DNA of 64,000 nucleotides from a virus. Lineage: Duplodnaviria > Heunggongvirae > Uroviricota > Caudoviricetes. The position numbers and the translations under genes were made by a program. Location: positions 1-64,000 of IMG/VR virus record IMGVR_UViG_3300036860_000563. One strand, 5' to 3'. Shown here one piece after another: positions 27,063 through 53,479 of the stretch. Below the pieces are notes generated by a model. The model was not told the origin of the DNA and did not search any database. It saw nothing but the letters and a program-made list of their open reading frames with translations. How positions within the stretch are numbered: the first letter of the stretch is position 1; each line of letters begins with the position of its first letter.

Positions 27063-27434
<372 letters not shown>

Positions 27435-27634
27435 GTGAAGAACGTGAGTGACGAGATGAAGGTGCTCGTGGGGTTGGTGCTGATCGTCGTAGCGGCCGTG
27501 AGCCTGTGGTGGGTGTTCACACACGTGGCGGCCGGACCGGCGCTTCCACCCACCCCGCGCGTGACGTCATCGCAGTGATGACGTCGATAACGTTAATGAT
27601 GATCTTGTTTCTCTACGAGCAATTCACCTCTTCT

Positions 27635-27643
27635 TGGTAGAAT
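27635..27643 (+). promoter_or_regulatory. extended -10-like promoter element TGGTAGAAT
   Basis: TGn + TAGAAT, about 60 nt upstream of the NADAR gene. Shares GGTAGAATC with the element at 33218. Followed by a (GAGAAGAG)4 repeat. Confidence 0.3.
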
Positions 27644-27700
27644 CGTAGCAGAGCGAGTGAAGAGGAGAAGAGGAGAAGAGGAGAAGAGGTGAGTGATGTG

Positions 27701-28162: not shown

Positions 28163-28424
28163 CGGAAGTAGTGGCTCGCGTTGAGTGGAACGTGTTCGTG
28201 CAAGGTGTGAAGTTAGGGGGTCTTGACGTTGACGATTGAGCGTGTCATCCTGCTGGTTGTGTTCGGCGCGCTGGGCGTGGGGCTCGTGCTCTACGTCCTC
28301 AGCGTTGGACGTGGACGTGGGCGTCGTAGGTGACGTCACACACGCCACAGCTCATATCACCTCACCTGATATGATAAGAGTAAGAGACAGCTAAGAAAAC
28401 TCATCGACAGGAGATGATGATCGA

Positions 28425-28715
28425 GTGCTCAAGAACTTGGGTGCGTGGAAGCGCGTGTCGTTCGTACTCGTAGTTCTCGCACTGGCCGTCACAATCGGTG
28501 GCTGCGGTAAGATGCGTGAGAAGGTCAAGGACGCACCGATGAATGACCAGCTGGACAACACCGGTGTCGCGACGCGAGTCGTGATGCCGGACGGCTACTC
28601 GAACGTGGCCACTAAGTGCGATCACGGTAACCGGATCTACGTGGCGTTTCACGGAGACTCGCCCTACACCGCGATCGCGATCGTACCCGGTGACCCAACT
28701 TGTCCTAAGAACTAG
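28425..28715 (+). CDS. small secreted lipoprotein
   Basis: Signal peptide KRVSFVLVVLALAVTIGGC with lipobox-like IGG|C. AGGAG RBS, GTG start. Preceded by a TGATATGAT -10-like element at about 28367. Confidence 0.45.
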   Translation: MLKNLGAWKRVSFVLVVLALAVTIGGCGKMREKVKDAPMNDQLDNTGVATRVVMPDGYSNVATKCDHGNRIYVAFHGDSPYTAIAIVPGDPTCPKN

Positions 28716-28741
28716 GTGAGAGAAGGAGAGGCACGAGAGTC

Positions 28742-29746
28742 GTGGACGGAACGTTCATCGGCACGATCGTGTTCGGGGTGCTCACGCTCGTGGGAGTCGT
28801 CGTGTGGCTTGCCACGCGGGTGACCAACCCACGACCACACTCTGATCAGTATGACACACTCTCCGGTCACCGCCGAGCGGTAGCAGCGTGGGAGCTGCGC
28901 GGTACCGCGCGACGAGCCGCCCGCTGGACGGTCATCGCGCTCGGTGGGTGCACGGTGTTACTCTTCACGCTGTCGTGCTTCACGCGCGTCGGTACCAACC
29001 AGATCGGGATCATGAACTCGTTCGGGCGACCCGTGGACGCGCTGTCCAACGGCGTGCACCCGAAGTCGCCGTGGGAGACGAAGGTCGAGTTTGACGCGTC
29101 GCGGCAGTTCCTGCGCTTCCAGGAGCGCGGCAACGGCAAGGAGACGCACAGCGAGAAGGTGTTCCCGGCCTTCAAGGTTCGCATCGCGAACAACGCGGGC
29201 GCGGAGGTCTGGGGCGTCGTGACGTGGCAGATGCGCGCCGACACCCCGGAGGAGAAGTTGCAGGCGGTGCAGCTGTACCGGCAGTACCGCACGTTCGAGC
29301 GACTGAACGACAACTACGTCGCACAGTCGACGCAGGCCGTGCTGCTCGCGACGTTCGCGGACGTCAACCCGCTGGTGCCGGACAAGAACCCATCGTTCGC
29401 GGAGCTGTCCGTGACGACGGAGCGGCACCTGCGCGAGCTCGTCGGCGCGCAGCTGGACGTCATCTCGGTGCAGCTCACGTTCGTGGACTACGATGATAAG
29501 ACGGACGATGCGATTAAGTCTGTGCAGGCGCAGATCGCGAAGACCGCCGAGGAGACCCAGCGACAGAAGACCAACGAGGCGGCGGCTCGCGCCGCAGCCG
29601 CGCTGGGTAGCACCGCGCAGGGACCACCGCCCAGCGAGGCGGTGCTCATCAACAAGTGTCTGGACATCGCACAGGCACTGGGTAAGGAACCCGGCTACTG
29701 CTTCATCCGAGGTGCCACTCCGATCATCGGGCGCTCACCGCAGTAG
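28742..29746 (+). CDS. SPFH/band-7 (stomatin/prohibitin-like) membrane protein
   Basis: Two N-terminal TM segments, then a band-7-like core (IMNSFGRPVDAL...HPKSPWETKVEFD...FKVRIANNAGAEVWGVVTWQMR), then a coiled-coil/Ala-rich tail. Confidence 0.5.
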   Translation: MDGTFIGTIVFGVLTLVGVVVWLATRVTNPRPHSDQYDTLSGHRRAVAAWELRGTARRAARWTVIALGGCTVLLFTLSCFTRVGTNQIGIMNSFGRPVDALSNGVHPKSPWETKVEFDASRQFLRFQERGNGKETHSEKVFPAFKVRIANNAGAEVWGVVTWQMRADTPEEKLQAVQLYRQYRTFERLNDNYVAQSTQAVLLATFADVNPLVPDKNPSFAELSVTTERHLRELVGAQLDVISVQLTFVDYDDKTDDAIKSVQAQIAKTAEETQRQKTNEAAARAAAALGSTAQGPPPSEAVLINKCLDIAQALGKEPGYCFIRGATPIIGRSPQ

Positions 29747-29774
29747 GGTTCACTCGCGCTACGTTGACCGATGA

Positions 29775-30491
29775 GTGACGAGGAGAGTGACGCCCGTGAA
29801 CACGGTGCTGCTGAATGGGATCGTCGGGTCGACCGCGTACAACTTAGCGGACTCTGACTCGGACGTGGACAGACTCGGGATCTTCGCCGTTGACACGGTG
29901 GAGCTGCACGGGTTGAGGCGTCCGGTTGAGAGCATCGTTAGGACGCATCCGGATCGCACGCTTCACGAGGTGGGTAAGTGGTGTCGACTCGCACTTAACG
30001 GTAACCCCACCGTGATGGAGCTCGTGTGGTTACCGCGTGACCTGTACGAGGAGAGCACCGAGCTCGGCGAGGAACTCATCGCGTTACGTGGCGAGTTCTT
30101 GAGTGCGAGTCGCGTGCGAGACGCGTACCTGGGCTACGCCACCCAGCAGTTCTACAAGCTTCAGGCGCGCGGTGATGGGTCGTTCTCTGCCGACACGCGT
30201 AAGCGTATGGCGAAGCACGCACGACACCTACTTCGGCTGCTCGAGCAGGGCGTCGAGCTGCACCGGACCGGCACGTTGACGATCCGGCTCTCACCAGAAG
30301 TCGCCGCCGCGGTGCGCGAGTTCGGCGACCGGGTCGCGACCGGTGACGTGGAGGAAGCGCGTGTAAAGCTCTCACTGTTCGAGGAGGTGTTCCGCACGGT
30401 GTCGACGCCACTGCCCGCTGAGCCCAACGTCGAGCGCGTGGAGCGCTGGCTGCGTGAGGTGCGACGACAACACTACGCTTCTGAGAAGTAA
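29775..30491 (+). CDS. minimal pol-beta-superfamily nucleotidyltransferase
   Basis: LLNGIVGSTAYNLADSDSDVDRLGIF is the GS-x9-DxD NTase signature. Alternative GTG starts at 29787 and 29796. Confidence 0.55.
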   Translation: MTRRVTPVNTVLLNGIVGSTAYNLADSDSDVDRLGIFAVDTVELHGLRRPVESIVRTHPDRTLHEVGKWCRLALNGNPTVMELVWLPRDLYEESTELGEELIALRGEFLSASRVRDAYLGYATQQFYKLQARGDGSFSADTRKRMAKHARHLLRLLEQGVELHRTGTLTIRLSPEVAAAVREFGDRVATGDVEEARVKLSLFEEVFRTVSTPLPAEPNVERVERWLREVRRQHYASEK

Positions 30492-31628: not shown

Positions 31629-32015
31629 GTGAGTGACACCACGGTCAACTGGACGCTCCTCAACTCGCTCGCGGCGCGACCGCACAGGCACGACGGCGCG
31701 CCGCACCGAGGGTACCGCAGAGTCGTTCAGCACCTGCTGGACGTGGCCGGTGTACCGGACGGCGTCGGTGTGGACACGCGCGTCGACGCGCGGGTGTACC
31801 TGCTACTCGTCGAGGTTCTTAAGCTGCGAGAGACGCTCGGCCGACTCAGGGACCGGCACTCACGTGAGACCGGTCCGGCGGGAACGGTGGGTGTTTACTG
31901 CACCGAGTGTGACGCTCGCTGGCCGTGCAGCACGCGTCGTCTGGTCGACGGAACGTACGTCGAGGACGACGGAACGTACGTCGAGGACGACACGCCGGAA
32001 GTTGACACGCGGTGA
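31629..32015 (+). CDS. hypothetical protein with a C-terminal 21-bp tandem duplication (GTYVEDD x2)
   Basis: GGAGGAG RBS before GTG. Confidence 0.4.
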   Translation: MSDTTVNWTLLNSLAARPHRHDGAPHRGYRRVVQHLLDVAGVPDGVGVDTRVDARVYLLLVEVLKLRETLGRLRDRHSRETGPAGTVGVYCTECDARWPCSTRRLVDGTYVEDDGTYVEDDTPEVDTR

Positions 32016-32318: not shown

Positions 32319-33112
32319 GTGAACCCACTTCAGGGTGATGATGATCACGTCACGTGGGTCAAGGTACTGCTAGCTCTCGGGTTGGTGGTGCTGTTCGTAG
32401 GCACCTGCGTGGGTTGCCTAGCGTGGCTCTCGGGTCTCGGCTGACGGGAGAAGAGTGAGATGAACAACGGACGGACTAGGTTCGGTGACGTCATCGCGTT
32501 CGTGGTGGCCGTCATCGCGGTTGTGATCGCGGTTTTAGTGATCTTCGGTGCGCTCGACGGCCTCGGCGGTGGTGGGTGATGCGAGGCGTTCTCGGCCTCC
32601 TGGTGCTGCTGGCCGGCCTGGGTGTTGGTGTTGGTACTACCTGGGCGGTTCTCTCTCCGCTAGCTCTCCCAAGGAGCGCCCGAAGGTGGCACCACCGGGT
32701 GTCAACGGGGTGGCAGATCACGCGACGAAGGGTGGTGATGACGCCGCTAGCTGGCTGACGACGTTGACGCCCAACACGTGGAAGATCATCATTATCGCCG
32801 TCATCGCTCTTGTGATCTTATGGGCGTGGCGGTCGTTCCCGGCGTTCAAGTGGATGATCATCGGATGCGGGCTCGCGGCGCTCGTGTTTCTCGTGTTCAT
32901 AGCGTGAGCTGGCGATGATGAGTGAGGATAAGCGTGCGGCGATCGGCGTTCTGATCGGTGTGATGATGATCGTACTCGCGCTCGTAGGCATCATCTACGA
33001 GCGAAGAGATCGTAAGTAAGCAAAGAGGAAGGGGAAGAGTTAGCGTGAGCGACGTACAGGTAGAGTGGGGAGTGACTCTCTCACTCATCGCGATGAGCGT
33101 AGGACTGGTGTG
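32319..33112 (+). other. cluster of at least 5 tiny predicted single-TM peptides (22-60 aa) immediately upstream of terminase
   Basis: Examples: 32319..32444 VNPLQGDDDHVTWVKVLLALGLVVLFVGTCVGCLAWLSGLG; 32460..32579 MNNGRTRFGDVIAFVVAVIAVVIAVLVIFGALDGLGGGG; 32577..32907 region with KIIIIAVIALVILWAW and MIIGCGLAALVFLVFIA; 32916..33020 MMSEDKRAAIGVLIGVMMIVLALVGIIYERRDRK. Confidence 0.35.
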
Positions 33113-33219
33113 ATCGCTGCTGTCGGCGCTGTTCGGCGGTAAGTCTAAGAGGTAGGACGTACTCACCGTGTAGATGTGACGTGGTGCGCTGTGATACGTT
33201 GTGATACGGTGTGGTGCGG

Positions 33220-33225
33220 TAGAAT
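33220..33225 (+). promoter_or_regulatory. TAGAAT -10-like hexamer 6 nt upstream of the terminase ATG (leaderless-type arrangement), preceded by a GTGATACG(T/G)T x2 direct repeat
   Basis: Seen directly. Confidence 0.3.
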
Positions 33226-33231
33226 CAACGC

Positions 33232-35737: not shown

Positions 35738-35807
35738 GGGATGATAGCTTAACGGGAAAAGCCCGGGTCGCTCCCGGCGTACGCTGGTTCGAGGCCAGCT
35801 CATCCCA
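35738..35807 (+). tRNA. tRNA-like element with perfect acceptor, D- and T-arms but a non-canonical anticodon arm (CGC at the anticodon position)
   Basis: Manual fold: acceptor GGGATGA/TCATCCC + A73; D-stem GCTT/AAGC; T-arm GCTGG-TTCGAGG-CCAGC; variable loop CGTAC. Anticodon arm is either CCGGG-TCGCT-CCCGG (5-nt loop) or a 4-bp stem with loop GTCGCTC. Confidence 0.45.
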
Positions 35808-35951
35808 CGAGAGACACTCGTCCTAGGAGTGAGCGTCACTCGAGGATGTGAGTGGCGGAGGAAGTGGAGCCGGTTGGACCGTCCGGCGCGCGACACACCG
35901 GTACGATCGCTTGGTCAGCGAGGGACTACCGGTACCCGATCTCACATCCGA

Positions 35952-36023
35952 ACCTACGTAGCTCAACGGACAGAGCACCGGTCTACGAAGCCGGTGGTGG
36001 AGGTTCGACTCCTCTCGTAGGTA
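35952..36023 (+). tRNA. tRNA-Arg (anticodon ACG)
   Basis: Manual fold: acceptor ACCTACG/CGTAGGT; D-stem GCTC/GAGC; anticodon stem CCGGT/GCCGG with loop CTACGAA; T-arm GGAGG-TTCGACT-CCTCT; discriminator A. Confidence 0.7.
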
Positions 36024-36039
36024 CGAAGATCTTGATAGG

Positions 36040-37207: not shown

Positions 37208-37488
37208 AGGTCATTGTCTCGAGAGAAAAGGTGAGGGAAGAGTTTTTGATGCCCCGCTGGATGCTCAAGTTGTGCTTCACTGGTCGGCGTGTTAAAGGAG
37301 AGAGGATGGTCCGATGGACGCTAAGATCATTATAATGCTGGTGTGCTTTGGACTCGCCGCTCTGTTCATCAGTGTCGCGTTCTGGGGCAATGATGACGAC
37401 AGCTAACTCTTCGTTGGTGGTTGCACGACGTACAGTAATGTGATATAGTCGACGTAGAAGTGATCGAGTGACGAGGGAGTGATCAAGG

Positions 37489-39198: not shown

Positions 39199-39462
39199 GT
39201 GAATGAGACCAACGAGACCCACGAGACCCACGAGGTTGACGAGATCGACGAGATCGAGCGCGTCGTGCGCGCACACCCAGCGACCATCATCTTTCAGGAC
39301 CACCTCATCGAGGAACTGCGTAAGATCGATCATCGGTGCGTGCGGACGTACGACGGGTACGGGCGGTGTGTCCGCGTGACGCACACCGACGACGTCCGGT
39401 GCGTGACGGACGACGGGACCCCCTGGCCCGCGTGGGCTGCGAGTATGACGACGAAGGTGTGA
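39199..39462 (+). CDS. hypothetical protein with N-terminal NETNETHETHEVDEIDEIE repeat and 4 Cys
   Basis: 9-bp tandem repeats at 39202..39258. Confidence 0.4.
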   Translation: MNETNETHETHEVDEIDEIERVVRAHPATIIFQDHLIEELRKIDHRCVRTYDGYGRCVRVTHTDDVRCVTDDGTPWPAWAASMTTKV

Positions 39463-41608: not shown

Positions 41609-41818
41609 GTGGACCCAGCTGACCTGGTGAACCGGTTCACGTACCACCCACCACAGCCCGAGCAGATTAAGATCTACGAGGCGATCCGGCGCTCGACGCT
41701 GGCACTCGCACTTGAGATCAACCAGTTCGTGCCGGACTCACGCGAGAAGAGTCTCGCGCTGACTCACCTCGAAGATGTCGTCTACTGCGCCAACGCGGCG
41801 GTGGCGCGTCACGCATAG
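41609..41818 (+). CDS. hypothetical protein
   Basis: GAGGAG RBS. GTG start. Confidence 0.4.
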   Translation: MDPADLVNRFTYHPPQPEQIKIYEAIRRSTLALALEINQFVPDSREKSLALTHLEDVVYCANAAVARHA

Positions 41819-41829: not shown

Positions 41830-44541
41830 GTGGCAGATCGACGACGTGATGTCGCTCACCTCATCGTGCCACACGGTGAGCTTTCACACGGTGCGAACGG
41901 TCACACACTTATCACAGCCACGGTCGGTAGTAGCGTCTCACCGATCAACGCGGCCGCCCAGCGGTTGGTTCCGATCGACACGTACCGTGCCCAGTACACC
42001 CAGCCGTGGCAGGACGAGGCCTGGGAATTCTACGCGTCGCTTGGAGAACTTAACCAGGGCGTTGAGTGGTTTGGTGAGGCGGTCTCACGTGTGCGACTAC
42101 TCGCCGCCGAGGTCACCCCCGGCGGGGATGAACCGAGGGTGCTGGACACCGGCCCGGCCGTCGACCTCGTCCAGCGGCTCTGCGGTGGCACGGACGGGCA
42201 GTCTCAGCTGCTCCGATCACTGGGTGTTCAGCTCTCGATACCGGGAGAGTGTTACTTCGTCGGCCGCGACGTGGGGCAGCTGAGCTCACTCGACACCACG
42301 TCGTTGGACGCCGAGCCCGACGAGGACGGTCGTGTCTGGACCGTTCAGCCGACGAACACGGTGCGGCAATCACAGCGTGGCGTCTGGCGGACGCTAGGTC
42401 GTCGCAATCGTACCGATACCCGGCGCGGCTGGGACCTACAGGTCGATGAGGCGGTGTGGGTACCACTGCCCGCCGAGACCCTCATCACTCGCGTCTGGGA
42501 CCGTGATGAGCGCTCTCCGTGGCTGGCCGCGTCACCCGCGCGGGCGGCGCTACCCATCATGCGTGAGATCGACATGTACAACCGGTACGTCATCGCGACG
42601 CTCATCTCACGTGTGGCGTCCAATGGCATCTTGCTGATCCCGGACGAGGTGACGCTACCCGTCAACCCCAACTACGAGACGGCCGCCGACCCGTTCATGG
42701 CCGAGCTGATCGACGTCATGCGCGCCGCGATCAAGAACCCCGGTTCACCGGCGTCCGCGGCACCGGTGCCACTCCGAGTGCGCTCCGAGTACATCGAACG
42801 GTTCCGACACCTCACGTTCGCGACGCCGTTTGACGACAAGATCTTTCAGGCACGCGCCGACGCGATCAAGCGACTCGCCACGACGCTCAACCTGCCGACC
42901 GAGGTTCTAACCGGTCTGGGTTCCGTAAATCATTGGTGCGGAGATGACTCCACGCAAGCATACGTGCGTGATCGTGGCTGGGTGAGCCAGCGAGAACTTA
43001 ACGTCGGTGACGTGATTCTTACCCTCAACCACGAGACCGGGCTGTCCGAGTGGCAACCCGTGCTTGACATCTACCGAGCTGACGTTACCGACGAACAGAT
43101 GCTGGCACTTACTAGCCGGTTTCACTCATCGGTGTCGACGATGGGTCACCGCTGGCCCGTCGTCACGTCGACGGGCTACGACTGGCGCACATCACAGACG
43201 CTCGAGGCGAGTGATCGACTCGTGCTCGCCGTTCCTCACACCGACCTACCGACGACGATGAAGTACAGCGATGAGTTCGTCGAGCTCGTCGCGTGGATGA
43301 CGACGGATGGCTCGATTCGTCGGTGGCAACCTAAGTATAAAGGATCACTCCAGGCCGCCGTCCACCAGTCACATCGTGCTCATCCTGGGCGAGTGGCGGA
43401 GATCAGGCGAGTGCTCACCGCACTGTACGGACCGGCGAGCGTGCACCCGCACGGGTGTGAACGAGCCACCGAGCCTCGCTGGCGTGAGCACCGGTACGAG
43501 TCGTACGGCATGACGACGTGGGTGCTCAACCGAGTCGCTGCCGAGTCGCTCACCGAGGTGATGAATGTTCCTGAGAAGATCGTTACGCGTGACTTTATCT
43601 ACTCACTGACGCGGGCGCAGCTCGACCTGTTCATCAACTCGTACGCGGCCGGTGATGGACGTCAGGGGCCTACCGGCAGCGTGATAAGCTCGCAGCGAGA
43701 CGCCCGCCGACTCGACGCACTCGAGCTCGCGGCGACGCTCGCCGGTTACGTGACGTCGCGTGGGGTCGGTACCGACGGTGGTTTTAAGACCGGGCCGATC
43801 ACCACTCAACGCGTTGTGCACCCGGACAACCAGAACGTACGTGGTGGGCGGTGTAGCGTGGGCGTTGGGAGCGTGACGTCGTACACGGGTGTTGTGTGGT
43901 GTCCCACGACGAAGAACGGTACGTGGTTCGCTCAGCACAACGGTAAGACGTTCTTCACCGGCAACAGCGCGTGGGCACTCAACGAGGACGGCATCAAGAT
44001 TCACATCTCACCCAAGGTTGAGATCATGACGCGGTGCCTCACCGTCGGCTACCTGCACCCGATGCTGCGAGCGCTGGGTGAGCCGACGACCACCGCGGCG
44101 GGTAACCGGATCATCATGTGGTACGACACGTCCGAGCTCACCCAGCGACCCGACCGGTCCCCGCTGGCCGTCCAGCTTCGGGAGATGCTGGTCATCAACG
44201 ACACCGCCGCACGGCGTGAGTCGGGTTTTGACGAGGCGGACGCTCCGACGGATGATGAGCTCGAGAAGATGATCCTCGAGAAGCTCGCCGTTAACCCACA
44301 GACGGCGACGGCTGCGCTGAAGGAGCTCACCGGGCTCAACATCGCCGAGCCGCCGCCCACGGTCCCGGTGGTCGGCACCCCGTCACAGCCCAGCGGCCCA
44401 GCTGGCGACGCGGGTGACGGAACCTCCGTGGAGTCGGCACCTCCGGTGTCGACCACCGGACCACCTAAGACGCGCGACGCACCGCCGCCGGCACCCGACG
44501 AGGGAGCCAACGCGGTCACGACCGGTAGCCGTGGTAACTAG
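41830..44541 (+). CDS. portal protein interrupted by an intein
   Basis: Lies immediately upstream of the MuF-like gene. Portal-like N-terminal region (YTQPWQDEAWEFYASLGEL). Hint + LAGLIDADG insertion. Pro/Gly/Ala-rich C-terminal tail. Confidence 0.6.
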   Translation: MADRRRDVAHLIVPHGELSHGANGHTLITATVGSSVSPINAAAQRLVPIDTYRAQYTQPWQDEAWEFYASLGELNQGVEWFGEAVSRVRLLAAEVTPGGDEPRVLDTGPAVDLVQRLCGGTDGQSQLLRSLGVQLSIPGECYFVGRDVGQLSSLDTTSLDAEPDEDGRVWTVQPTNTVRQSQRGVWRTLGRRNRTDTRRGWDLQVDEAVWVPLPAETLITRVWDRDERSPWLAASPARAALPIMREIDMYNRYVIATLISRVASNGILLIPDEVTLPVNPNYETAADPFMAELIDVMRAAIKNPGSPASAAPVPLRVRSEYIERFRHLTFATPFDDKIFQARADAIKRLATTLNLPTEVLTGLGSVNHWCGDDSTQAYVRDRGWVSQRELNVGDVILTLNHETGLSEWQPVLDIYRADVTDEQMLALTSRFHSSVSTMGHRWPVVTSTGYDWRTSQTLEASDRLVLAVPHTDLPTTMKYSDEFVELVAWMTTDGSIRRWQPKYKGSLQAAVHQSHRAHPGRVAEIRRVLTALYGPASVHPHGCERATEPRWREHRYESYGMTTWVLNRVAAESLTEVMNVPEKIVTRDFIYSLTRAQLDLFINSYAAGDGRQGPTGSVISSQRDARRLDALELAATLAGYVTSRGVGTDGGFKTGPITTQRVVHPDNQNVRGGRCSVGVGSVTSYTGVVWCPTTKNGTWFAQHNGKTFFTGNSAWALNEDGIKIHISPKVEIMTRCLTVGYLHPMLRALGEPTTTAAGNRIIMWYDTSELTQRPDRSPLAVQLREMLVINDTAARRESGFDEADAPTDDELEKMILEKLAVNPQTATAALKELTGLNIAEPPPTVPVVGTPSQPSGPAGDAGDGTSVESAPPVSTTGPPKTRDAPPPAPDEGANAVTTGSRGN
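42937..43965 (+). mobile_element. intein (Hint domain + LAGLIDADG homing endonuclease) inside the portal gene
   Basis: N-terminal Cys block CGDDSTQAYV...NVGDVILTLNHETG. LAGLIDADG-like motifs LVAWMTTDGSI and LFINSYAAGDGRQG. C-terminal block VVWCPTTKNGTWFAQHNGKTFFTGN|S. The C-terminal junction is ambiguous: HN at 43936..43941 is followed by Gly. Confidence 0.6.
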
Positions 44542-44543: not shown

Positions 44544-47500
44544 GTGGTACGCGTCCCGAGGTGGTCAGAGGATGAACTGGAGCGCCGCTCCGGCCAGCTA
44601 GCGGCGCTCATCCGGCGTGCCTGGCGCGCCGTCGCGCGCGTCGTCGCCGGCGACATCGGCCGGCGGAGACCGATGAGCGACGTCACACCTGACCTCATGC
44701 ACCACAATCGCGTCGCGTTCGCGTGGCACGTCGAGCTCGAGGATCAGGTTCTCGCGTACGTCGCGCGAACGTACGAGGACGCCGCGGCCGATGTGCTCAT
44801 CCCACTGGGTGATGCGGTCGCAAACCTAGCGCCACTGGGACCGGAACCCGCGCACCGACACCTCGCACTCGCGCGCAACCGACTGCGCGACGTCGCCGAT
44901 GACGTCTGGGTGATCGTGCGAGAGCAGCTCGTCCTGGGCAGCCAGGCGGGTGAGTCGACCCAGCAGCTCGCGCTCCGCGTTCAGAACGTCACGGGCATCT
45001 CCGACGCCCGGGCGTTCACGATCGCGCGGACGGAGGTGCACGCGGCCCACGAGGCCGGCGCGCACGACCAGGCGCTCTGGGTCGACCCAGACGGTAAGAA
45101 GGAGTGGCTCGCCACCGCGGACGACCGCACGCGTGAGTCACACCGCGTGGCAAGTGGGCAGACCGTCGCGCTGACGAAGTCGTTCAGCGTGGGAGAGGGC
45201 ACACTTCGCTACCCGGGCGACCCACTGGGCGACCCCGGTGAGACGATCAACTGCCGGTGCAGCACCGCGTTTCACATATCACTTGATATGATAGGCCCTG
45301 TGAGTGATCAGAGTGATCAGAGTGACCAGAGTGATCAGAGTGACGTTCACACCGTGACGGCCGGCGCGTGGAAGCCGCAGCAGCACCCGCGCGGGGCGGA
45401 CGGTAAGTTCATCGAGGCCGGCGCGATCAAGAACTTCTTGAGCGCGAAGAAGCCAACGTTTGATCACGCAGCGTCCGCTATAGCCGAGCTCAACCAGCAG
45501 AAGTGGAGCAAGCTTACCGACGAGCAGCGTCAACGCTTTGCGAGTGTCGTCGCCGCCTGGCCCGACGACAACATACTCAAAAAGAAGATCACTAAGCTCT
45601 CGCAGGTACCGGAGCCGGCGACGTCAAGCTCGCCACCAGGTGACTTCTCTCATCTTAAGAAGGTCGGCGCACAGCGGGGCTCCAACCCCGGTGGGATCTT
45701 CGAGGGGCCGGACGGGCAGCGCTACTACGTTAAGAAGGCGAAGACGCCGCAGCACGCGGCCAACGAGCGAGCGGCCGCGCAGCTGTACGAACTCGCCGGG
45801 ATCGACGTGCCTCAAGTCACACAGGGTGAGGGCGCACCGGGGCTCGGTGCTGGGTTGCAGACGCGCACGAAGCTCGTACCAGGCGCGCAGACCGATCTTA
45901 AGAAGAAGCTGCACGACCCGGCCTACGTAGCCGTGCTGCGCGAGGGTTTCGTCGTGGACGCGTGGCTCGCCAACTGGGACGTGGCGGGTCTGACGTACGA
46001 CAACGTCGTCACCGATGAGTACGGTGACCCGTGGCGGATCGACGTCGGGGGCGCGCTACTCTACCGTGCGATGGGCGCGCCGAAGGGTGTGGCGTTCGGT
46101 GATGAGGTGACCGAGCTCGACACGCTTCGTGATCCGGCGAAGAACCCGCAGGCGGCGTCCATCTTCGCGGGTATGACCGACGCCGAGCTGCGCGAGTCCG
46201 CGAAGCGCGTCGTTTCGATCACACCAGAGCAGATCGACCAAGTGATCACACAGGCGGGTTTACCGGCGTCCGTGGCGGAGACGCTCAAGAAGCGCCGCGA
46301 GTACATCATGAAGATGTACCCACCGATCTCCTGGGTCTCACCGGACGAGGTGCCCGCGGCGACCGAGCCTCACACGCCGGTCCCGGCGAAGCTGAAGAAG
46401 CTCACACCCTCCACGAAGAAGGTTGTACCTGCGACAATCTACAAGTCGCACGACGTGGGTGACGTCGTCGCGATCGACGAGCACAGCTCGATGCGGATCC
46501 GCTGGACGAGCGCGGGTTACACGCTCGACGTCAGCGATGACGATGGGGCCACCTGGACCCTAAAGACGAAGCTCACGAAGAGTCAGGCGTACCAGTCACT
46601 CAAGAGTAACACGATGTGGCGAGAACCGACTCTCGACGTCGTCGCTGGTCCGGAGGTAACGCCACCGGCGCCAACACCGGTGAAACCGCCTGTGACGACG
46701 AAGTTGGTGCCGAAACCAGAGTCGAAACCAGAGTCGAAACCGAAACCGAAACCGAAACCAGAGCAGCTCAGCGATGGCACCAACTACGAATCGGATGACG
46801 TACCGAACTGGCAGGACGTCATCGATCCAGATGTTCTTAACGCGCTGTCACCGGGCACGGTCATCGCCGTCTCGACCGACGGCAACTACCGACTCGTGAA
46901 GGCGCCGGGCGGTAACCTCATACTTGACATGCAAAAGCTTAGTGACGCTGGGTGGCTGCCGTGGGGAGGTATCTACACTCCTAACTATGATGACGGTGAC
47001 GAGCTCTTCGCCGAAGAACTCTCGCACTACGCGTCCGCGTGGGTGAAACCTAACTCACCACTAGGCCAACAGCTGTTAGATAAGAGTGACAAATTACCGA
47101 CGTTACCCGCACCGGTGGAAGACTTTCATTACTGGGTTGAGAAGTTGGTGCCACCATCACCCCCACCGGTTGAGCTCGCCGGTGTGTCCGGCACCAACAT
47201 CACACTTCACGAGTACAAGGACCTAGTTAACGTCGCGCTGAGCTCACCGGGCACGACCGTCGCGAAGACACCGGTGGGTGATGTACTACGGTCATCGAGT
47301 AGCGGGCACCTCATCTGGTACCACGCCGGTGACGAGCCCACCTCCGAGCAGTTGAACAAGCTCAAAGCGATTCAGTTGATGCGCAGTCCTACCGCTGGCT
47401 GGGTGATCGACGCTCAACTACTCGCGCAATCGTCTCACCCAAGTGTAGTTGACCTGGACTATGAACCGGATGACACACCCAACTGGGAAGAGATTCAGCA

Positions 47501-50042
47501 CCCAGCGGTTGACCCACCAACGGGTACCGTGCTCGCTGTCTCTACTGATGGTGAGTACATTCTCGTGTCGGAAGCACCGTTCGGTGACTTTATCGTAAAA
47601 CGTAAAGTTAACGGAGAGTGGTCGGACGTTAGTAGTTACGCACCTGAGGAGCTCAACGCGCTCGGTTGGTCCATTGATCACGCGCTTGAGTCGTACTCGT
47701 CTGCGTGGGTGACTCCCAGCTCTCCGTTAGGCCAGCGACTGCTCGAGAACGCACCGCCGCCGTCGCCGCAGTTACTACCACCGTCACCACCATCATCGGT
47801 GGGTGGCCAACCACTCGTTGGGTGGACCAGTGAGGACGTCGTCGAAGATTGGACGTTCCCGGACGCTAAGACTTGGCAACCAGGTGATGTCATCGCGCTA
47901 GCGGTGAGTGGCACAGGTCGGATCGTCGCACGTGATGATCCAATCTACGTGTACGCACTTCAACGTTGGTCTAACGGTGCGTGGAAGGATGAGTACTACG
48001 AGGAGAAGGGTGGGCTTCTTAAGTATCACACCCCCTCCTTCATCGACGATGGGGTGTGGGTGGTGCCACACCCGGGCATTAAGATTAACACGGACGAGCA
48101 GCTCACCACGCAGTCATCGGTCGTCACTCCGTCCGGTACCGTCGTCGACGTCACGCAGGTGCCAACCGCGACGCAGGTTGCGATGAAGAAGCACCTGAAG
48201 AAGCTCGGTGTTGGTTACTGGTCTAAGCCAGAGAAGATCTGGGAGGCTGTCAAGGAGCTGCAGAGTTCGTACGTTGGTACGAATGATGAGCAGCTCACAC
48301 CACTGCAGGTGCTGCAGTCGCTGGACGTGCAGACAAAGACGAAGGAACCGTCACCCTTTGAGACGAAGGTGACGAAGTGGCTCAGCACCGAGGCTGGGCA
48401 GGCGTACCTAGCGAAGCAGTACGAACCATCGCCATCACCGACGAGTGCGATCGAAACGTTTCTCGCACAGAAGACTAAGACACTTGGTTACCTCGACGAT
48501 GCGGTGTTTGATCTCACGCAAGAGAAGTGGGACGCGCTCACAGTTGATGATCAGCAGCAGTTCCTGGTCGCCGTCGACGCCGTTGTGGACCAGGATGACT
48601 CAAACGCGATCAAAGAGAAGATCGTTGGGTTGATGACTGGGTCGTGGTCAACGCCGACGACGTCGACGTCGACACCGTTGCCCGGGTTGCCCGGTTATCC
48701 AACCGTGAACTCCAACGTCAACGTGCCGTACACTCTAAAGAACAACCCCGCGACGACCGGAAATGAGATCTTCGCGCAGCTTCAGCACGCAGCAGACGGG
48801 CAAGTGCTCGCGTACGGTAACTCAGGAGCGTTCAAGTATCGGTTCGTAGTCGTTGAGACCGACGGTGTTAAGGGTGTCACTGTAGAGTCTTACAGCGTGG
48901 GTACGTGGCACACGTGGACCGGCTCGTGGGCGACGTCATTCTCGACGATGCCAGCTTTTGCTAAGTACGGTCTCACTAATCTCGTAACCGCCAAGAACGC
49001 AAAGATCGTTAATACAAAGAAGTCGAAGACGACGACGACGACGAAGACGACGACTAGGGCCAAGGCTGAGGCTGAGGTCGAGGTGGTTACACCACTGCCC
49101 ACCGCGGGTAAGCTCAACCTGGGCAGTGGTGACATCGAGCACCTCACCGACGAGAAGAAGGCGAAGCTCTACGCCGAGTTTAAGAAGCAACCTGCGACGT
49201 ACCTCAGCTCACCACCGGAGGACATCTACGCCGCACTGAGCACCATCGCCGACACGTACGGTATGAGCACCCTGCAGCTGCTGCGCGTCATCGACGACGT
49301 TGGTGCTAAGAAGGTCAACAAGACCGACGAGCACCTCTTTGAGCAGACCATCATTAAGTGGCTCGGCACACCTAAGGGTCACGCGGTTGTGACCGGCCAG
49401 CCGATCCCAAAGCCGCCCGCGCCACTACTGAGCGCGGGTGTCGACCCAACGAAGATTCCGACGTTCGAGGAGTCGTCGAAGTACTCGTACGGTGTCATCT
49501 TCATGGGTAAGCCGATCGACGAGTTCTGGGCCGAGGCCGTCGCGGCGCACGGTGAGTGGACCGACGATCAGAAGAAGGGCCTGCGCGCGTACACCGGTGG
49601 CATCTACTACTCGATCAACTCATACCTGTTCGGTAAGATCGAGACGATCAGCTCCACGAACTCAAAGGCGATGCACCAGGTGCAGCTCGGCATGCGATCG
49701 TCCACTCGTCCACTACTACTGCACCGGGGCGTCGGTTACAACGCTCTGGGTGTTCACAGTCACGAGCAGCTGGAGAAGCTCGTCGGCCAGACGCGCGTGC
49801 AGGAGGGCTTTGGCTCCACCAGCGTGGGTGGTCACGCCGCGTTCTCAGGACAGATGACGTTGGAGGTCGAGGCACCACCTGGTACTCCGATGGCGTGGGT
49901 GCAACCGATCTCACACTACAAAAGTGAGAACGAAATGGTGCTCGCCGCCGGTCTTCACTACCGGATCGTCAGCGTGAAGAAGGTGGGGTATCGGAGCGTG
50001 GTGCGCGTCCGGGTCGTACCACCGCCGAAGGAGACGAAGTGA
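44544..50042 (+). CDS. giant MuF-like (Mu F / SPP1 gp7) minor capsid protein with an internal kinase-like domain, tandemly duplicated modules and a C-terminal ADP-ribosyltransferase domain
   Basis: MuF motif DDRTRESHRVASGQTV...GETINCRCS. ART motifs LRAYTGGIYYSINSYL, LLLHRGVGY (Arg), GFGSTSV (STS), SENEMVL (ExE). Internal duplicated about-150-aa modules (YESDDVPNWQDV...WVKPNSPLGQQLL / YEPDDTPNWEEI...WVTPSSPLGQRLL). Confidence 0.75.
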   Translation: MVRVPRWSEDELERRSGQLAALIRRAWRAVARVVAGDIGRRRPMSDVTPDLMHHNRVAFAWHVELEDQVLAYVARTYEDAAADVLIPLGDAVANLAPLGPEPAHRHLALARNRLRDVADDVWVIVREQLVLGSQAGESTQQLALRVQNVTGISDARAFTIARTEVHAAHEAGAHDQALWVDPDGKKEWLATADDRTRESHRVASGQTVALTKSFSVGEGTLRYPGDPLGDPGETINCRCSTAFHISLDMIGPVSDQSDQSDQSDQSDVHTVTAGAWKPQQHPRGADGKFIEAGAIKNFLSAKKPTFDHAASAIAELNQQKWSKLTDEQRQRFASVVAAWPDDNILKKKITKLSQVPEPATSSSPPGDFSHLKKVGAQRGSNPGGIFEGPDGQRYYVKKAKTPQHAANERAAAQLYELAGIDVPQVTQGEGAPGLGAGLQTRTKLVPGAQTDLKKKLHDPAYVAVLREGFVVDAWLANWDVAGLTYDNVVTDEYGDPWRIDVGGALLYRAMGAPKGVAFGDEVTELDTLRDPAKNPQAASIFAGMTDAELRESAKRVVSITPEQIDQVITQAGLPASVAETLKKRREYIMKMYPPISWVSPDEVPAATEPHTPVPAKLKKLTPSTKKVVPATIYKSHDVGDVVAIDEHSSMRIRWTSAGYTLDVSDDDGATWTLKTKLTKSQAYQSLKSNTMWREPTLDVVAGPEVTPPAPTPVKPPVTTKLVPKPESKPESKPKPKPKPEQLSDGTNYESDDVPNWQDVIDPDVLNALSPGTVIAVSTDGNYRLVKAPGGNLILDMQKLSDAGWLPWGGIYTPNYDDGDELFAEELSHYASAWVKPNSPLGQQLLDKSDKLPTLPAPVEDFHYWVEKLVPPSPPPVELAGVSGTNITLHEYKDLVNVALSSPGTTVAKTPVGDVLRSSSSGHLIWYHAGDEPTSEQLNKLKAIQLMRSPTAGWVIDAQLLAQSSHPSVVDLDYEPDDTPNWEEIQHPAVDPPTGTVLAVSTDGEYILVSEAPFGDFIVKRKVNGEWSDVSSYAPEELNALGWSIDHALESYSSAWVTPSSPLGQRLLENAPPPSPQLLPPSPPSSVGGQPLVGWTSEDVVEDWTFPDAKTWQPGDVIALAVSGTGRIVARDDPIYVYALQRWSNGAWKDEYYEEKGGLLKYHTPSFIDDGVWVVPHPGIKINTDEQLTTQSSVVTPSGTVVDVTQVPTATQVAMKKHLKKLGVGYWSKPEKIWEAVKELQSSYVGTNDEQLTPLQVLQSLDVQTKTKEPSPFETKVTKWLSTEAGQAYLAKQYEPSPSPTSAIETFLAQKTKTLGYLDDAVFDLTQEKWDALTVDDQQQFLVAVDAVVDQDDSNAIKEKIVGLMTGSWSTPTTSTSTPLPGLPGYPTVNSNVNVPYTLKNNPATTGNEIFAQLQHAADGQVLAYGNSGAFKYRFVVVETDGVKGVTVESYSVGTWHTWTGSWATSFSTMPAFAKYGLTNLVTAKNAKIVNTKKSKTTTTTKTTTRAKAEAEVEVVTPLPTAGKLNLGSGDIEHLTDEKKAKLYAEFKKQPATYLSSPPEDIYAALSTIADTYGMSTLQLLRVIDDVGAKKVNKTDEHLFEQTIIKWLGTPKGHAVVTGQPIPKPPAPLLSAGVDPTKIPTFEESSKYSYGVIFMGKPIDEFWAEAVAAHGEWTDDQKKGLRAYTGGIYYSINSYLFGKIETISSTNSKAMHQVQLGMRSSTRPLLLHRGVGYNALGVHSHEQLEKLVGQTRVQEGFGSTSVGGHAAFSGQMTLEVEAPPGTPMAWVQPISHYKSENEMVLAAGLHYRIVSVKKVGYRSVVRVRVVPPPKETK

Positions 50043-53000
50043 GCGCGCTCGAGGACGACATTGGCTTCACACTCACCACCGTCGTTGAGATGCCACGCGG
50101 TCTGACCACGGACGAGGCACACCGGTTTCTCGCCACAGGTGAGTTGCTAACCGACGTGAATGTCGAGCTGACGTTAGCGACCACGGAGGTAGGTCCCACG
50201 GTGGCGCGGAGAGCACCGAGTGCGAGTGAGGTGCGAGCGTGGCTCGCGGGTGTGGCACCAGCGATCACGGCCGGAGGGTCCAGCGCTAACGTACGTCACG
50301 AGAAGTACGTTGGTGAACTAGGTGATGATGACCAGACGGGTGAACACGCAGGCCGATGGTGTGAGTCAGCTGAGCTGGTTAAACCGGTTGAACTGGCTAA
50401 AACTGGTACAAAATTGGTGCCGGTAACCTCCTCCGAGACGCCCGAACCGTCACCGGCCGTAGTCGAACCAACGGTGAAATCAGTGATGGATGTGACGCAT
50501 ACCGGAGCTATGATCGCATTAAGGCCCGCCGACGTCGACGCCCAGCGACTCGCCATTGACGGCGGTGAGGAACCGAACGAGCTGCACTGCACGCTCTACT
50601 ACCTGGGAGACGCCACCAACTTCTCCGAGGACGCGCGTGCGCAACTCATCGACCTCGTGCGTGAGTACGTGTACGACTCACCCACGCTCACGGTGGATGG
50701 CTTTGCGATCTCCATGTTCAACCCACCGGGTACCGAGCGAGTTGACGATGACATGGAGCGTGAGCCGTGCGTCGTGCTGGGCCTGTCCGGGTCCGCGTTG
50801 ACGTCGGTGCACGACGCCGTCGCGACCGCCATCGAGGACCACGGTGTCGACCTACCGGAGCAGCACTCACCCTGGGTTCCGCACATCACACTCGTCTACA
50901 CCGATGACGCGGACCTGAGTGCGTTCACCGAGAAGACCGGACCGGTGACACTTGATACGGTGTGCGTGTACTTCGGTGATGACCGATACGAGATTCCACT
51001 GGACGAGAGTAGTGACGATGACGATGACGACGAGCAAACGACGGGTGACGCTGCGTACGACGTTGAGCTGAGTGACGCGGGTGAGCTGATCGTACCGAAC
51101 GTGCTGCTCGACTGGCGAGCGTGGGTGACGCTCGAGAGAGAACGTGACGTCAACCTACCGAGTGGGCCCGGTCACCAGCTTCGGGACTACTGGGTTCACG
51201 GTCCCGGCGCACTGAAGATCAGGTGGAACACGGAGGGTGACGGCACGCGGTGCATCCGGTACCTTCGTAAGTACGTGAAGGATCCGGGTGGCCTGTGCCA
51301 AGAGTATCACCGACTCGCGACCGGTAAGAGCATGCACCCACACCCGGGACGAGTCACCGAGTCCAGCGACACCGTAACACTGAGTGACACCTCGTTGTAC
51401 GGTAGACCTAACGCCGAGGGAGGTGCTGACGTGCCCTGGCACGTTGAGAAGCGTGGTGATGAGTTCTGCGTCGTGAAGGACGCCGATGACAGTGTGGCTG
51501 GGTGTCACAACCTACGAACAGACGCGATCAACCAGCTGCGCGCGCTCTACGCGAGTGAACCAGATGTGGCCGCCGACGCGCGCGTCGTAGGTGACTGCCC
51601 ACCGGGACATCATCGTATGCCCAGCGGTGAGTGCATGGCCGACGAGGACATGACGTCACCAACACCAACGTCAACACCGGCAGTAGGCCCGAGTGGCGCG
51701 TACGAGCTCGACCCGGCCGCGACGATCGCACCGTGGGAGGGTGTGCTGACCCTGGAGGGTGTCGAGTCCGGTGACGGTCGAATGTTCGCCGCCGGTTCAC
51801 TGTCGTGGGACACAACGCCGAGTGACGGTCTACCGCTGATGTGGCAGAAGGAGACGAGTCACGGTGGTCAGGGTGACGTCTCGGTGCGAGTTGGTAGCGT
51901 TCAGGAGGTGTGGCGTGAGCCCGACCCGGGTGGACGCGCCGACGTTAACATGATCAGGGGTCGGGGCGTCTTCGACCTGCGCAACCCGGACGGCCACGAG
52001 GCCCACCGACGCATGTGGGACGGCTTCATGTCCGGCAACTCGGTGGACGTGGACTCGGTGAAGGACGCGAGCGTCGAGGTCGTCTACCCAGCGACGGTAA
52101 CGGAGAGTGGTAGCGCGAGTTCTCAGGTGTTCGGCACGCCCGAGCTCACGGTGTTTCACCGTGGACGCATCCGCGGCACGACGCTCGTCGAGTTTCCAGC
52201 GTTCACCGAGGCGCGGCTGCACCTCATCAACCCGGTGACGGCGAGCGCCGAAGAGTCCGGTGACGATGACGTGACGAGCGCAGAGACGGCGACGACGACT
52301 CTCACCGGCTCCAGCACCGGTGCGACCGAGGTGCACGTCGCGGCGTCATCAGACGCGTCGTGGGACGCCGGTGCCAACGAGACCAGGCTACCGTCGCCGT
52401 TACCACTGAGCGTCGCTAAGAAGATGTTCGCGTACGTGGACACGTCGCAGGTCGAGAACGGTCACGTACCGAAGAGTGCGGGTAAGCTGCCCCACCACGA
52501 GGTGAGCGTGACCGGTGCTCCGGGGGCGGCCAACCTCACCGGTGTGTCGGCCGCGATCGGCGCGCTGCACGGCGCGCGAACGCCGGTGAGCGTTCCGAGT
52601 GGAGCGCGTCACGCGATCTACGAGCACCTCGCGGCTCACCTGCGTGCCGCTGGGCGTGAGCCACCGCCGTTCTCACTCGTGGCTGAGCGAACGCAGACCC
52701 TCGTGGCGGCGACCAGCGTCATTCAGATCTCGGACACACCGCCACGTGAGTGGTTCGCCGAGCCGGTCGACGTGCCGGCGCACGGTGCGCTGACCGTCAC
52801 CGCCGAGGGCCGTGTGTACGGCTACCTCGCACCGCTCAACGTACGTCACCGTTCGTTCTCCGGGCGCAACCAACTCGTACCGTTTAAGAACGTCGACTAC
52901 GACCGGTTCATGGGTGGTGAGACGATCGTCGCGGACGGCGGGCGTGTGACGACCGGCCCGATCACGATGAACTGTGGCCACCTACCACCGGTTCCGGGTT

Positions 53001-53479
53001 TCGACGCGTTGGACGCGCAGGAGCACTACGACAACTCGTGCTCGGTGGTGGCGGCGGTGCGAGTTGGTGAGAACCAGACCGGTGTCTGGGTGGCCGGCGC
53101 GCTGCTGCCCGACGTCACACCGGCGCAGGTCACACGTATGATGACGTGCCGGCTGTCCGGTGACTGGAGACCGCACCTGGACCGGTTCGGTTGGCGTGAG
53201 CTCACCGCCGCGCTGCTGGTGCCCGTGCCCGGCTTTCCGATGGCGCGCGTCGCACCTAGCGTCTCCGTCGATGACGGTCAGCTCGTCGCGGCCGCCGTCC
53301 CACTTGAGTTTCTCGGTGGTGAACCGCAAGTTAACTTGCGACTCACCGTCGACGCGCTACGTGCGGAGACGTCGTCGCTACGCAGGACGTTGGTGCAGGT
53401 CCTCGCGCGCCGGGTAGGACGTGATCCTCGATCACGCGCCGATCAACTACGCGCGCGCGTGCACGAGAGTGAGGGGTGA
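50039..53479 (+). CDS. capsid maturation (prohead) protease with an N-terminal 2H-phosphoesterase (LigT-like) domain and a large C-terminal extension
   Basis: 2H motifs HCTLYYLG and HITLVYT (two HxTx). HK97-type protease region GDGRMFAAGSL...LPLMWQKETSH...GFMSGNSVDVD. Poly-Asp linker SDDDDDDEQ. Confidence 0.6.
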   Translation: MSALEDDIGFTLTTVVEMPRGLTTDEAHRFLATGELLTDVNVELTLATTEVGPTVARRAPSASEVRAWLAGVAPAITAGGSSANVRHEKYVGELGDDDQTGEHAGRWCESAELVKPVELAKTGTKLVPVTSSETPEPSPAVVEPTVKSVMDVTHTGAMIALRPADVDAQRLAIDGGEEPNELHCTLYYLGDATNFSEDARAQLIDLVREYVYDSPTLTVDGFAISMFNPPGTERVDDDMEREPCVVLGLSGSALTSVHDAVATAIEDHGVDLPEQHSPWVPHITLVYTDDADLSAFTEKTGPVTLDTVCVYFGDDRYEIPLDESSDDDDDDEQTTGDAAYDVELSDAGELIVPNVLLDWRAWVTLERERDVNLPSGPGHQLRDYWVHGPGALKIRWNTEGDGTRCIRYLRKYVKDPGGLCQEYHRLATGKSMHPHPGRVTESSDTVTLSDTSLYGRPNAEGGADVPWHVEKRGDEFCVVKDADDSVAGCHNLRTDAINQLRALYASEPDVAADARVVGDCPPGHHRMPSGECMADEDMTSPTPTSTPAVGPSGAYELDPAATIAPWEGVLTLEGVESGDGRMFAAGSLSWDTTPSDGLPLMWQKETSHGGQGDVSVRVGSVQEVWREPDPGGRADVNMIRGRGVFDLRNPDGHEAHRRMWDGFMSGNSVDVDSVKDASVEVVYPATVTESGSASSQVFGTPELTVFHRGRIRGTTLVEFPAFTEARLHLINPVTASAEESGDDDVTSAETATTTLTGSSTGATEVHVAASSDASWDAGANETRLPSPLPLSVAKKMFAYVDTSQVENGHVPKSAGKLPHHEVSVTGAPGAANLTGVSAAIGALHGARTPVSVPSGARHAIYEHLAAHLRAAGREPPPFSLVAERTQTLVAATSVIQISDTPPREWFAEPVDVPAHGALTVTAEGRVYGYLAPLNVRHRSFSGRNQLVPFKNVDYDRFMGGETIVADGGRVTTGPITMNCGHLPPVPGFDALDAQEHYDNSCSVVAAVRVGENQTGVWVAGALLPDVTPAQVTRMMTCRLSGDWRPHLDRFGWRELTAALLVPVPGFPMARVAPSVSVDDGQLVAAAVPLEFLGGEPQVNLRLTVDALRAETSSLRRTLVQVLARRVGRDPRSRADQLRARVHESEG

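Follow-up and report, generated by a model that had tools for sequence, protein, structure and literature searches.

Tandem repeats at unusual density in a tailed phage of actinophage type, probably produced by slipped-strand expansion and kept where length matters little

A stretch of 64,000 nucleotides of a tailed-phage genome (Duplodnaviria; Heunggongvirae; Uroviricota; Caudoviricetes), corresponding to positions 1 to 64,000 of the IMG/VR record IMGVR_UViG_3300036860_000563 and hereafter called the window, was analysed for short tandem-repeat arrays. Ten arrays could be assigned, eight of which lie in coding and two in non-coding sequence. The phenomenon is of a known kind, namely variable number tandem repeats (VNTR) or microsatellites that encode low-complexity tracts, at a density which is unusual for a phage. 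The arrays are probably the products of slipped-strand expansion and were kept at sites where a change in length does little harm. As for the mechanism, it is an ordinary one, and nothing points to a switching function. A preliminary description of the sequence had regarded the arrays as in-frame linkers arising from systematic slippage-prone expansion, and possibly as a contingency mechanism.

The arrays were located with Tandem Repeats Finder (TRF) on the window, then checked in the sequence and in the reading frames. Their placement was judged from the reading frames, the signal of G+C content at third codon positions (GC3), public gene calls and homologues. Twelve loci with a TRF score of at least 50 were obtained in the window, compared with a mean of 0.6–0.75 and a maximum of 3 in control sequences, which consisted of 100 dinucleotide shuffles and 100 triplet shuffles of the window. 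For the short-period class (period of at most 12, at least 3.5 copies, at least 85% match), 7 arrays were counted in the window and about none in the shuffles. In loci of relatives at the family level, 7 arrays of this class were found in ~1.33 Mb of structural-module sequence, which amounts to ~0.35 per 64 kb (8 in 1.35 Mb if contig L081 is included, which belongs to the same phage as the window). Their replication-module sequence, 0.31 Mb in total, contained 6, or ~1.2 per 64 kb. The enrichment over the relatives, ~6–20 fold or, as a single figure, about fifteenfold, is real and specific to the lineage. All arrays named in the preliminary description were recovered at the given positions or within a few bases of them, and the scan added two more, at 1398–1430 and 49024–49054. 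Copy numbers had to be corrected for the hexamer and for the 9-mer, both previously counted as nine copies and now as eight and ten. The arrays are listed in Table 1.

Table 1. Tandem-repeat arrays of the window, with strand and predicted product or placement
Array	Position	Strand	Product or placement	Located by
Imperfect hexamers GAGTGY/GAGCGT, ~5 units	1398–1430	−	RECERECECE, ~codons 10–20	TRF
(TCTTCC)8, on the coding strand (GGAAGA)8	3786–3833	−	DNA polymerase I 5' leader	TRF
(CACCACTCT)10, on the coding strand (AGTGGTGAG)10	12002–12091	−	(SGE)10, bL12 homologue	TRF
(GAT)22.7	27351–27418	+	24 Asp codons, C-terminal region of an ORFan	TRF
(GAAGAGGA)3.9, period 8	27659–27689	+	Non-coding, NADAR leader	TRF
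Perfect 21 bp x2.2	31946–31991	+	GTYVEDD x2	TRF
Degenerate 9-mers	39202–39258 (39205–39257 after correction)	+	Peptide NETNETHETHEVDEIDEIE (NET NET HET HE VDE IDE IE)	TRF
(GAGTGATCA)4.7	45302–45343	+	SDQ x4, MuF residues 254–267	TRF
12-mer (CGAAACCAGAGT)2.6, then 6-mer (CGAAAC)4.2	46711–46759	+	KPESKPESKPKPKPKPE, MuF residues ~723–739	TRF
ACG/AAG triplets	49024–49054	+	T5KT3, MuF residues ~1494–1504	TRF

Among the eight coding arrays the period is always 3, 6, 9, 12 or 21, and the reading frames remain open across every one of them. The single period which is not divisible by 3 (8 nucleotides) belongs to a non-coding array. A unit divisible by 3 in a supported open reading frame (ORF), which defines an in-frame VNTR, was consequently found for eight of the ten arrays. 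Preservation of the reading frame, claimed earlier for all arrays, does not apply to the 8-nucleotide array, which is non-coding, nor to (TCTTCC)8, which lies upstream of the true polymerase start. Three of the coding arrays are N-terminal, two are C-terminal and three are inter-domain, the latter all in the MuF protein, so that each lies at a protein end or between folded domains, as is expected of disordered linkers and tails. Five are located within ~35 codons of a protein end, the terminal ones being judged by position only. The designation as linkers can be retained for the three MuF arrays, two of which fall in segments with a predicted local distance difference test (pLDDT) score below 50, while the five coding arrays at protein termini are not linkers.

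In-frame VNTR and low-complexity regions have been surveyed in prokaryotic and phage proteins (PMC6821194, PMC6426759). The arrays of the window share with them the in-gene units divisible by 3, a probable origin by slippage, the hydrophilic disordered tracts at termini or between domains, and the bias of coding DNA for tri- and hexanucleotide units; of 131 repeat loci in the relatives, 117 had a period divisible by 3. Low-complexity regions are entirely missing from half of 102 phage proteomes (PMC6821194), and the top trinucleotide iteration in a survey of simple sequence repeats (SSR) in mycobacteriophages was 9 (PMC6426759). In contrast, the window holds 7 short-period arrays per 64 kb versus 0.35–1.2 in its relatives, and 20 uninterrupted units form the core of its (GAT) tract. 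The tracts of the window are also rich in Asp, Glu, Ser, Lys and Thr, whereas Ala, Gly and Pro abound in the low-complexity regions of the surveyed phages.

The codon make-up of the arrays differs with their regularity. The near-perfect high-copy arrays use disfavoured codons (GAT 0.22, AGT 0.13, AAA 0.08), with a GC3 of 0.05–0.47 versus 0.77 for the genome, while the degenerate arrays (NET/HET, GTYVEDD and T/K) are built of preferred codons. Rare codons in perfect arrays fit a recent expansion by slippage, after which the arrays would slowly decay and ameliorate. The NET/HET array is probably older, given its preferred codons.

Further contigs of the same phage were recovered by exact-protein look-ups. 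The contig from JGI 3300036861 showed no substitution and one indel over the 31,281 bp compared with the window, while the Logan contigs of the runs SRR11742948 (48.1 kb compared) and SRR11742962 (22.9 kb compared) showed no difference. The indel, of 6 bp, lies within the (GAT) tract, which has 26 Asp codons in that contig instead of 24. No other array was seen to vary, and the sole difference in 31,281 bp falls in the longest microsatellite, where it would be expected if slippage depends on length. The remaining nine arrays were unchanged in every second assembly covering them. (GGAAGA)8, (SGE)10, the 8-nucleotide and the 21-bp arrays are the same in JGI 3300036861, and the 21-bp, NET, SDQ, PESK/PK and T/K arrays are the same in the Logan contigs. 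The 21-bp array was matched in three other contigs, the NET array in two Logan contigs, SDQ in contigs L128 and L129, PESK/PK in L128, and T5KT3 in L081. Logan contigs, assembled with k=31, end inside the 9-mer, GAT and 8-mer arrays (at 12057, 27392 and 27660), all of at least 31 nucleotides, which is an effect of the assembler and no sign of heterogeneity. The contigs of JGI 3300036861 and SRR11742962 share an end at 38496/7 and probably derive from one sample or reflect a shared coverage gap; the comparison would thus amount to about two independent samples. Among the assemblies of about two samples and the homologues found, a length difference was seen for the poly-Asp tract (24 versus 26) and for the SGE extension, which is absent from the bL12 homologue described below. 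The proposal that copy number is the main difference between isolates receives weak positive support, as the only difference seen was of this type and concerned the longest microsatellite only.

Slippage as the source of the arrays, which the preliminary description had also put forward, is supported by head-to-tail near-perfect units, by the disfavoured codons and by the gain of two units confined to the longest microsatellite. Slipped-strand mispairing during replication of the phage DNA would create the arrays, and these would survive in purine-rich Shine-Dalgarno leaders (two arrays), at protein ends (five) and in the disordered spacers of MuF (three). Within coding sequence, purifying selection against frameshifts would leave only unit lengths divisible by 3, and as a result the arrays look systematically in-frame. 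The hydrophilic tracts SGE, D, SDQ, PESK/PK and T/K would be at most flexible or extended spacers and tails. These features suggest that the lineage is unusually slippage-prone or slippage-tolerant, and that most arrays are near-neutral.

Several points weigh against this interpretation. The stability of nine arrays was seen in only about two independent samples, and the difference in the (GAT) tract could be an error of short-read assembly. Near-neutrality is assumed. About half of the arrays are located at or next to translation starts, which may hint at a function, though this excess is only suggestive. Finally, the interpretation does not account for the ~6–20 fold excess over relatives with 57–63% identical polymerases. 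Actinobacteria are not known to possess MutS/MutL mismatch repair, but the relatives are of high G+C content as well and probably have the same host background.

The array ahead of the DNA polymerase I gene consists of purines only and ends 10 nucleotides upstream of GTG 3773 (spacer 3783–3774). In 13 relatives the polymerase starts 1–4 codons ahead of a conserved L-D/G-D-V-x-L-H-L-V motif, and several of them have a stop codon just upstream of this start. In the window this start corresponds to GTG 3773, from which the IMG gene call also predicts a product of 600 amino acids. If (GGAAGA)8 were read as Gly-Arg codons, its GC3 would be 0 and the codon shares 0.11 and 0.04, in a genome with the GC3 given above. 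The longest ORF, in which the polymerase would begin with (GR)8, was rejected on the basis of the homologue starts, the IMG call and the codon usage. All these elements place the array in the predicted non-coding 5' leader of the polymerase gene. An IMG ORF of 81 amino acids which reads the array as poly-Glu was discarded as well, as it carries no coding signal (GC1/2/3 of 0.50/0.60/0.55).

Two further observations were made around this leader. A 29-codon ORF called by IMG at 3770–3859 on the minus strand (MTGHSVALW-E16-AVNS) also reads the array as poly-Glu, and its TGA stop overlaps the GTG start of the polymerase (GTGA); a poly-Glu upstream ORF ahead of the polymerase is possible. Just upstream of the array, at 3835–3905 on the same strand, two strong hairpins (z = -2.9) and three copies of CACAGTG were detected. 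One hairpin has the form GTGCCACT-n11-AGTGGCAC and the other a CACAGTG-based stem; they could terminate the deaminase operon or have a regulatory role.

The second leader array, with its period of 8, has no start codon upstream in any open frame. Its 3' end merges into GAGGTGA, a match to the Shine-Dalgarno sequence, 8–9 nucleotides ahead of ATG 27701, which is the IMG start of a gene for a NADAR-domain protein of 153 amino acids. A -10-like element, GTAGAATC, is located at 27637, ~15 nucleotides upstream of the array. Judged from this element, the NADAR leader would be ~50 nucleotides long and consist largely of the array. Both leader arrays are predicted to be unpaired and contain AGGAG or GAGGA motifs. 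Scanning around both of them for sigma-70 -35/-10 consensus sequences did not reveal any promoter pair, and neither array can consequently be placed in a promoter spacer; a scan for terminator consensus sequences in the same regions found nothing. Both arrays lie upstream of an unchanged final spacing between Shine-Dalgarno sequence and start codon, the 8-nucleotide array being also downstream of the -10-like element. Purine-rich leaders of 13–18 nucleotides are common in the genome, and it is plausible that such leaders were the seeds of the two leader arrays. The total of purine runs is not above that of a mononucleotide shuffle (8 versus 8.4), while their placement before gene starts is consistent.

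Purine-only Shine-Dalgarno-type leaders of 13–18 nucleotides were seen before gene starts at 28718–28731, 33022–33039, 37294–37306 and 17355–17367. The octamer GTAGAATC, containing the -10-like TAGAAT, occurs at 1515–1522 (−), 27637–27644 (+) and 33219–33226 (+), each time in gene orientation and upstream of a start (NADAR, terminase and a small ORF). A count of three was also reached in 5 of 100 shuffles and is only suggestive. In front of the terminase gene the octamer is separated from the ATG by 5 nucleotides (caacg), which suggests a leaderless terminase mRNA.

Three arrays are located in a single gene, which encodes a MuF protein of 1832 amino acids (44544–50042, plus strand) and is immediately preceded by the portal gene (41830–44541). 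The MuF domain PF04233 was detected at residues 125–241 (53.2 bits, cut-off 29.6) and the ADP-ribosyltransferase toxin domain PF03496 at residues 1671–1814 (53.7 bits, cut-off 23.4). Further parts of the protein are a helical module, a protein-kinase-like fold at ~363–592 and repeated beta modules; internally repeated modules of ~120 amino acids were also noted. The SDQ x4 tract forms a spacer directly after the MuF domain, the PESK/PK tract a spacer of Pro, Lys and Glu after the kinase-like module, and T5KT3 a spacer which precedes the ADP-ribosyltransferase region at the C-terminus. For the stretch flanked by the SDQ and PESK/PK arrays, 24 homologues were found in databases, in which the kinase-like module occurs in fusion with domains of the ADP-ribosyltransferase, NUDIX or 2'-5' RNA-ligase type. 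Their alignment shows an invariant Gly-loop, Lys and Glu, together with the motifs DAWLANWD and RIDxGG.

A model was produced with AlphaFold2 on the alignment of the kinase-like segment, and among the arrays it covers those of SDQ and PESK/PK only. The core was modelled with a pLDDT above 90, while residues 1–49 of the modelled segment (SDQ x4) and 455–527 (PESK/PK) remained below 50. A sequence search of the PDB with the middle segments of MuF did not return any match, and the kinase-like module was therefore identified through a fold search: with Foldseek, the core matched Helicobacter pylori CtkA, Rio2, HipT and eukaryotic-type protein kinases. On the basis of this model, the SDQ and PESK/PK arrays are predicted to be spacers in a multi-effector virion protein of the beads-on-a-string type.

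MuF polymorphic phage toxins consist of an N-terminal MuF head domain fused to variable toxin domains. The protein of the window resembles them by its N-terminal PF04233, its C-terminal toxin domain PF03496 and the position of its gene after the portal gene. It differs by its length, by the added CtkA/Rio/HipA-like kinase fold and by the beta modules strung by low-complexity spacers. The TonB protein possesses a rigid spacer of the type (Glu-Pro)n-(Lys-Pro)n, and by analogy the KPESKPESKPKPKPKPE tract may be compared with it for its alternating Pro/charged composition between two modules. In contrast to the TonB spacer, KPESKPESKPKPKPKPE is much shorter, belongs to a phage virion protein and has a coding sequence made of perfect repeats with rare codons.

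The other coding arrays are located near protein ends. The (SGE)10 tract occupies codons 4–33 of a bL12 homologue of 165 amino acids (11601–12098, minus strand). The protein matches PF00542 with 53.4 bits (cut-off 25.9) and the dimerisation domain PF16320 with 22.2 bits, just under the cut-off of 25; the latter match begins directly after the SGE array. With a C-terminal domain above the Pfam threshold and a dimerisation domain, the gene can be rated as a virus-encoded bL12. No in-frame start codon is present downstream of the array, so that (SGE)10 must be translated. The sole homologue found, P0008, is 53% identical and lacks the SGE extension: its start, MSDQLIERF, aligns with ...RVSDLLEAF of the window right after the array, which makes the extension lineage-specific. 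The contig encoding P0008 belongs to an unrelated temperate actinophage and gives no closer sister lineage; this suggests that the bL12 gene was horizontally transferred.

A phage gene which unites the bL12 C-terminal domain with the dimerisation domain is a feature shared with the virus-encoded bL12 described by Mizuno et al. (2019, PMC6375957). The cultivated bL12-encoding viruses of that study infect proteobacteria, whereas the gene of the window occurs in an actinophage-like genome, stands beside a TROVE/Ro60-like gene and has the 30-residue (SGE)10 extension. In the region 11601–13768 (minus strand) the bL12 gene lies directly downstream of the TROVE/Ro60-like gene, the TROVE stop being followed by GGAGG and then by the bL12 start. 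A search with Rfam at gathering thresholds returned only tRNAs and no Y-RNA-like RNA near the TROVE gene.

The poly-Asp tract belongs to an ORFan at 27063–27434 (plus strand; IMG start 27234), with a GC3 of 0.72 upstream of the tract and only ERE and the stop codon after it. A deep protein search with this poly-Asp protein did not yield any homologue. GTYVEDD x2 ends 8 positions (TPEVDTR and the stop) from the C-terminus of an ORF of 128 amino acids (31629–32015, plus strand), and the degenerate 9-mers form codons 2–20 of an 87-amino-acid ORF (39199–39462, plus strand). The RECERECECE array lies in a Cys-rich ORF of 79 amino acids (1219–1458, minus strand), which is also an IMG gene call in contig L156.

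An alternative to near-neutral slippage products is that the tracts are functional low-complexity modules under selection, slippage being merely their origin. Poly-Asp could act as a mimic of DNA or another polyanion, PESK/PK could be a rigid TonB-like spacer and (SGE)10 could modify the stalk protein of the ribosome, while the purine arrays could be unstructured standby sites with multiple Shine-Dalgarno sequences which boost translation. The arrays are indeed intact and identical across samples, bL12 can be translated only through its array, the leader arrays are predicted to be single-stranded with AGGAG or GAGGA, and purine-rich leaders are in use genome-wide. However, rare codons and perfect units argue for a very recent origin rather than for long maintenance, the bL12 homologue does without the extension, and relatives with the same gene modules do not possess such arrays; for the poly-Asp protein there are no homologues from which conservation could be gauged. 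We consider such functions, for the protein tracts and for the leaders alike, as rather unlikely. A combination of slippage-prone replication with arrays co-opted as 'tuning knobs', by which copy number would bring about adaptive heritable variation in expression or in proteins, appears improbable. Its components would be adjustable ribosome standby sites for the polymerase and NADAR genes and adjustable poly-Asp and bL12 (SGE)10 tails.

Contingency loci are well documented in bacteria, where SSR mediate phase variation in Haemophilus, Neisseria and Campylobacter (PMC6321876, PMC5084427). Applied to the window, this would mean that the arrays are selected hypermutable sites which switch or tune genes and generate adaptive heterogeneity. 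The likeness consists in slippage-prone simple repeats, one of which varies and two of which are in 5' leaders. The variable array is the sole difference in 31 kb, the two leader arrays directly adjoin the Shine-Dalgarno and start regions of the polymerase and NADAR genes and could there change ribosome loading, and the array density is specific to the lineage. Yet with every coding period divisible by 3, a change in copy number cannot cause a frameshift and toggle a gene; the leader arrays leave the final Shine-Dalgarno-to-start spacing as it is, and none can be put in a promoter spacer, as no sigma-70 pair was found by the scan. The genes concerned are not surface or host-interaction genes, and no array was found in a tail-fibre, receptor-binding or restriction-modification gene. 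In about two samples, compared at the level of assemblies, 1 of 10 arrays was found to differ (GAT 24 versus 26), nine were unchanged in each second assembly covering them, and no sign of high-frequency reversible switching was seen. The contingency mechanism suggested in the preliminary description is accordingly given up as very unlikely. That the arrays or their copy numbers were made by short-read metagenome assembly is hardly credible: the Logan contigs stop inside the three longest arrays compared and the GAT count differs between assemblies, but two separate JGI assemblies agree in every base of the 6-mer x8 and 9-mer x10, the shorter arrays have the same sequence in Logan contigs of two runs, and the coding arrays keep open frames throughout.

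If the density of slippage-derived arrays is a real trait of the lineage, the phage would offer a natural system for the birth and decay of microsatellites in a virus of likely MutS/MutL-less hosts, in which the tuning of translation by repeats beside Shine-Dalgarno sites could also be tested. In practical terms, k-mer assemblies are interrupted at the arrays and gene callers are led astray by them, as seen with the spurious (GR)8 N-terminus of the polymerase; the arrays could also be used as VNTR markers to tell strains apart. Compared with the repeats, the host genes are arguably of more unusual biology, in particular bL12 beside a Ro60-like gene and MuF with kinase-like and ADP-ribosyltransferase modules.

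The window has a G+C content of 63% and displays the gene set of a tailed phage, with portal, MuF-family head protein, protease-like fusion protein, major head protein, large terminase, DNA polymerase I, primase and polynucleotide kinase. Genes are oriented on the minus strand up to ~13.8 kb and on the plus strand from 14.4 kb on. Megablast of the region at 44–50 kb against GenBank phages did not return any match. The best portal matches, with at most 34–35% amino acid identity, are from Gordonia, Arthrobacter and Streptomyces phages. The closest full-length major head proteins, on IMG/VR and JGI metagenome contigs, are 57–58% identical (at most 74% over short partial matches), and these relatives are too distant to be used for a comparison of copy numbers. 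The polymerase is 57–63% identical to those of the array-poor relatives. With tblastn against the loci of all relatives, no match was obtained for bL12, TROVE, poly-D, NADAR, the ORF with the 21-bp duplication or the NET ORF, while MuF appeared mosaic among relatives in the middle of the protein. From these comparisons, the phage appears to represent an uncultivated lineage of actinophage type, for which an annotated close relative does not seem to exist.

Some neighbouring genes deserve mention. Directly before the portal gene, an ORF of 69 amino acids (41609–41818, plus strand) has a precomputed match to PF24729 (Acb2/Tad1 hairpin), a family tied to anti-CBASS and anti-Thoeris sponge proteins; it is itself preceded by an ORF for a DUF1360 protein. 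Following MuF, an ORF of 1146 amino acids (50039–53479, plus strand) has a 2'-5' RNA-ligase-like region at ~150–340, and its C-terminal part matches PHROGs of head-maturation proteases and portal-associated proteins. Thymidylate synthase and dCMP deaminase are encoded at 4003–5572. Three tRNAs (Met-CAT, Ala-CGC and Arg-ACG) and a gene set resembling RNA repair or nucleotide modification were noted at 25772–30491, 8109–8183 and 35738–36024. The set comprises the NADAR-domain protein, a polynucleotide kinase/phosphatase, an RlaP nucleotidyltransferase, a metallophosphatase and a Band_7 protein.

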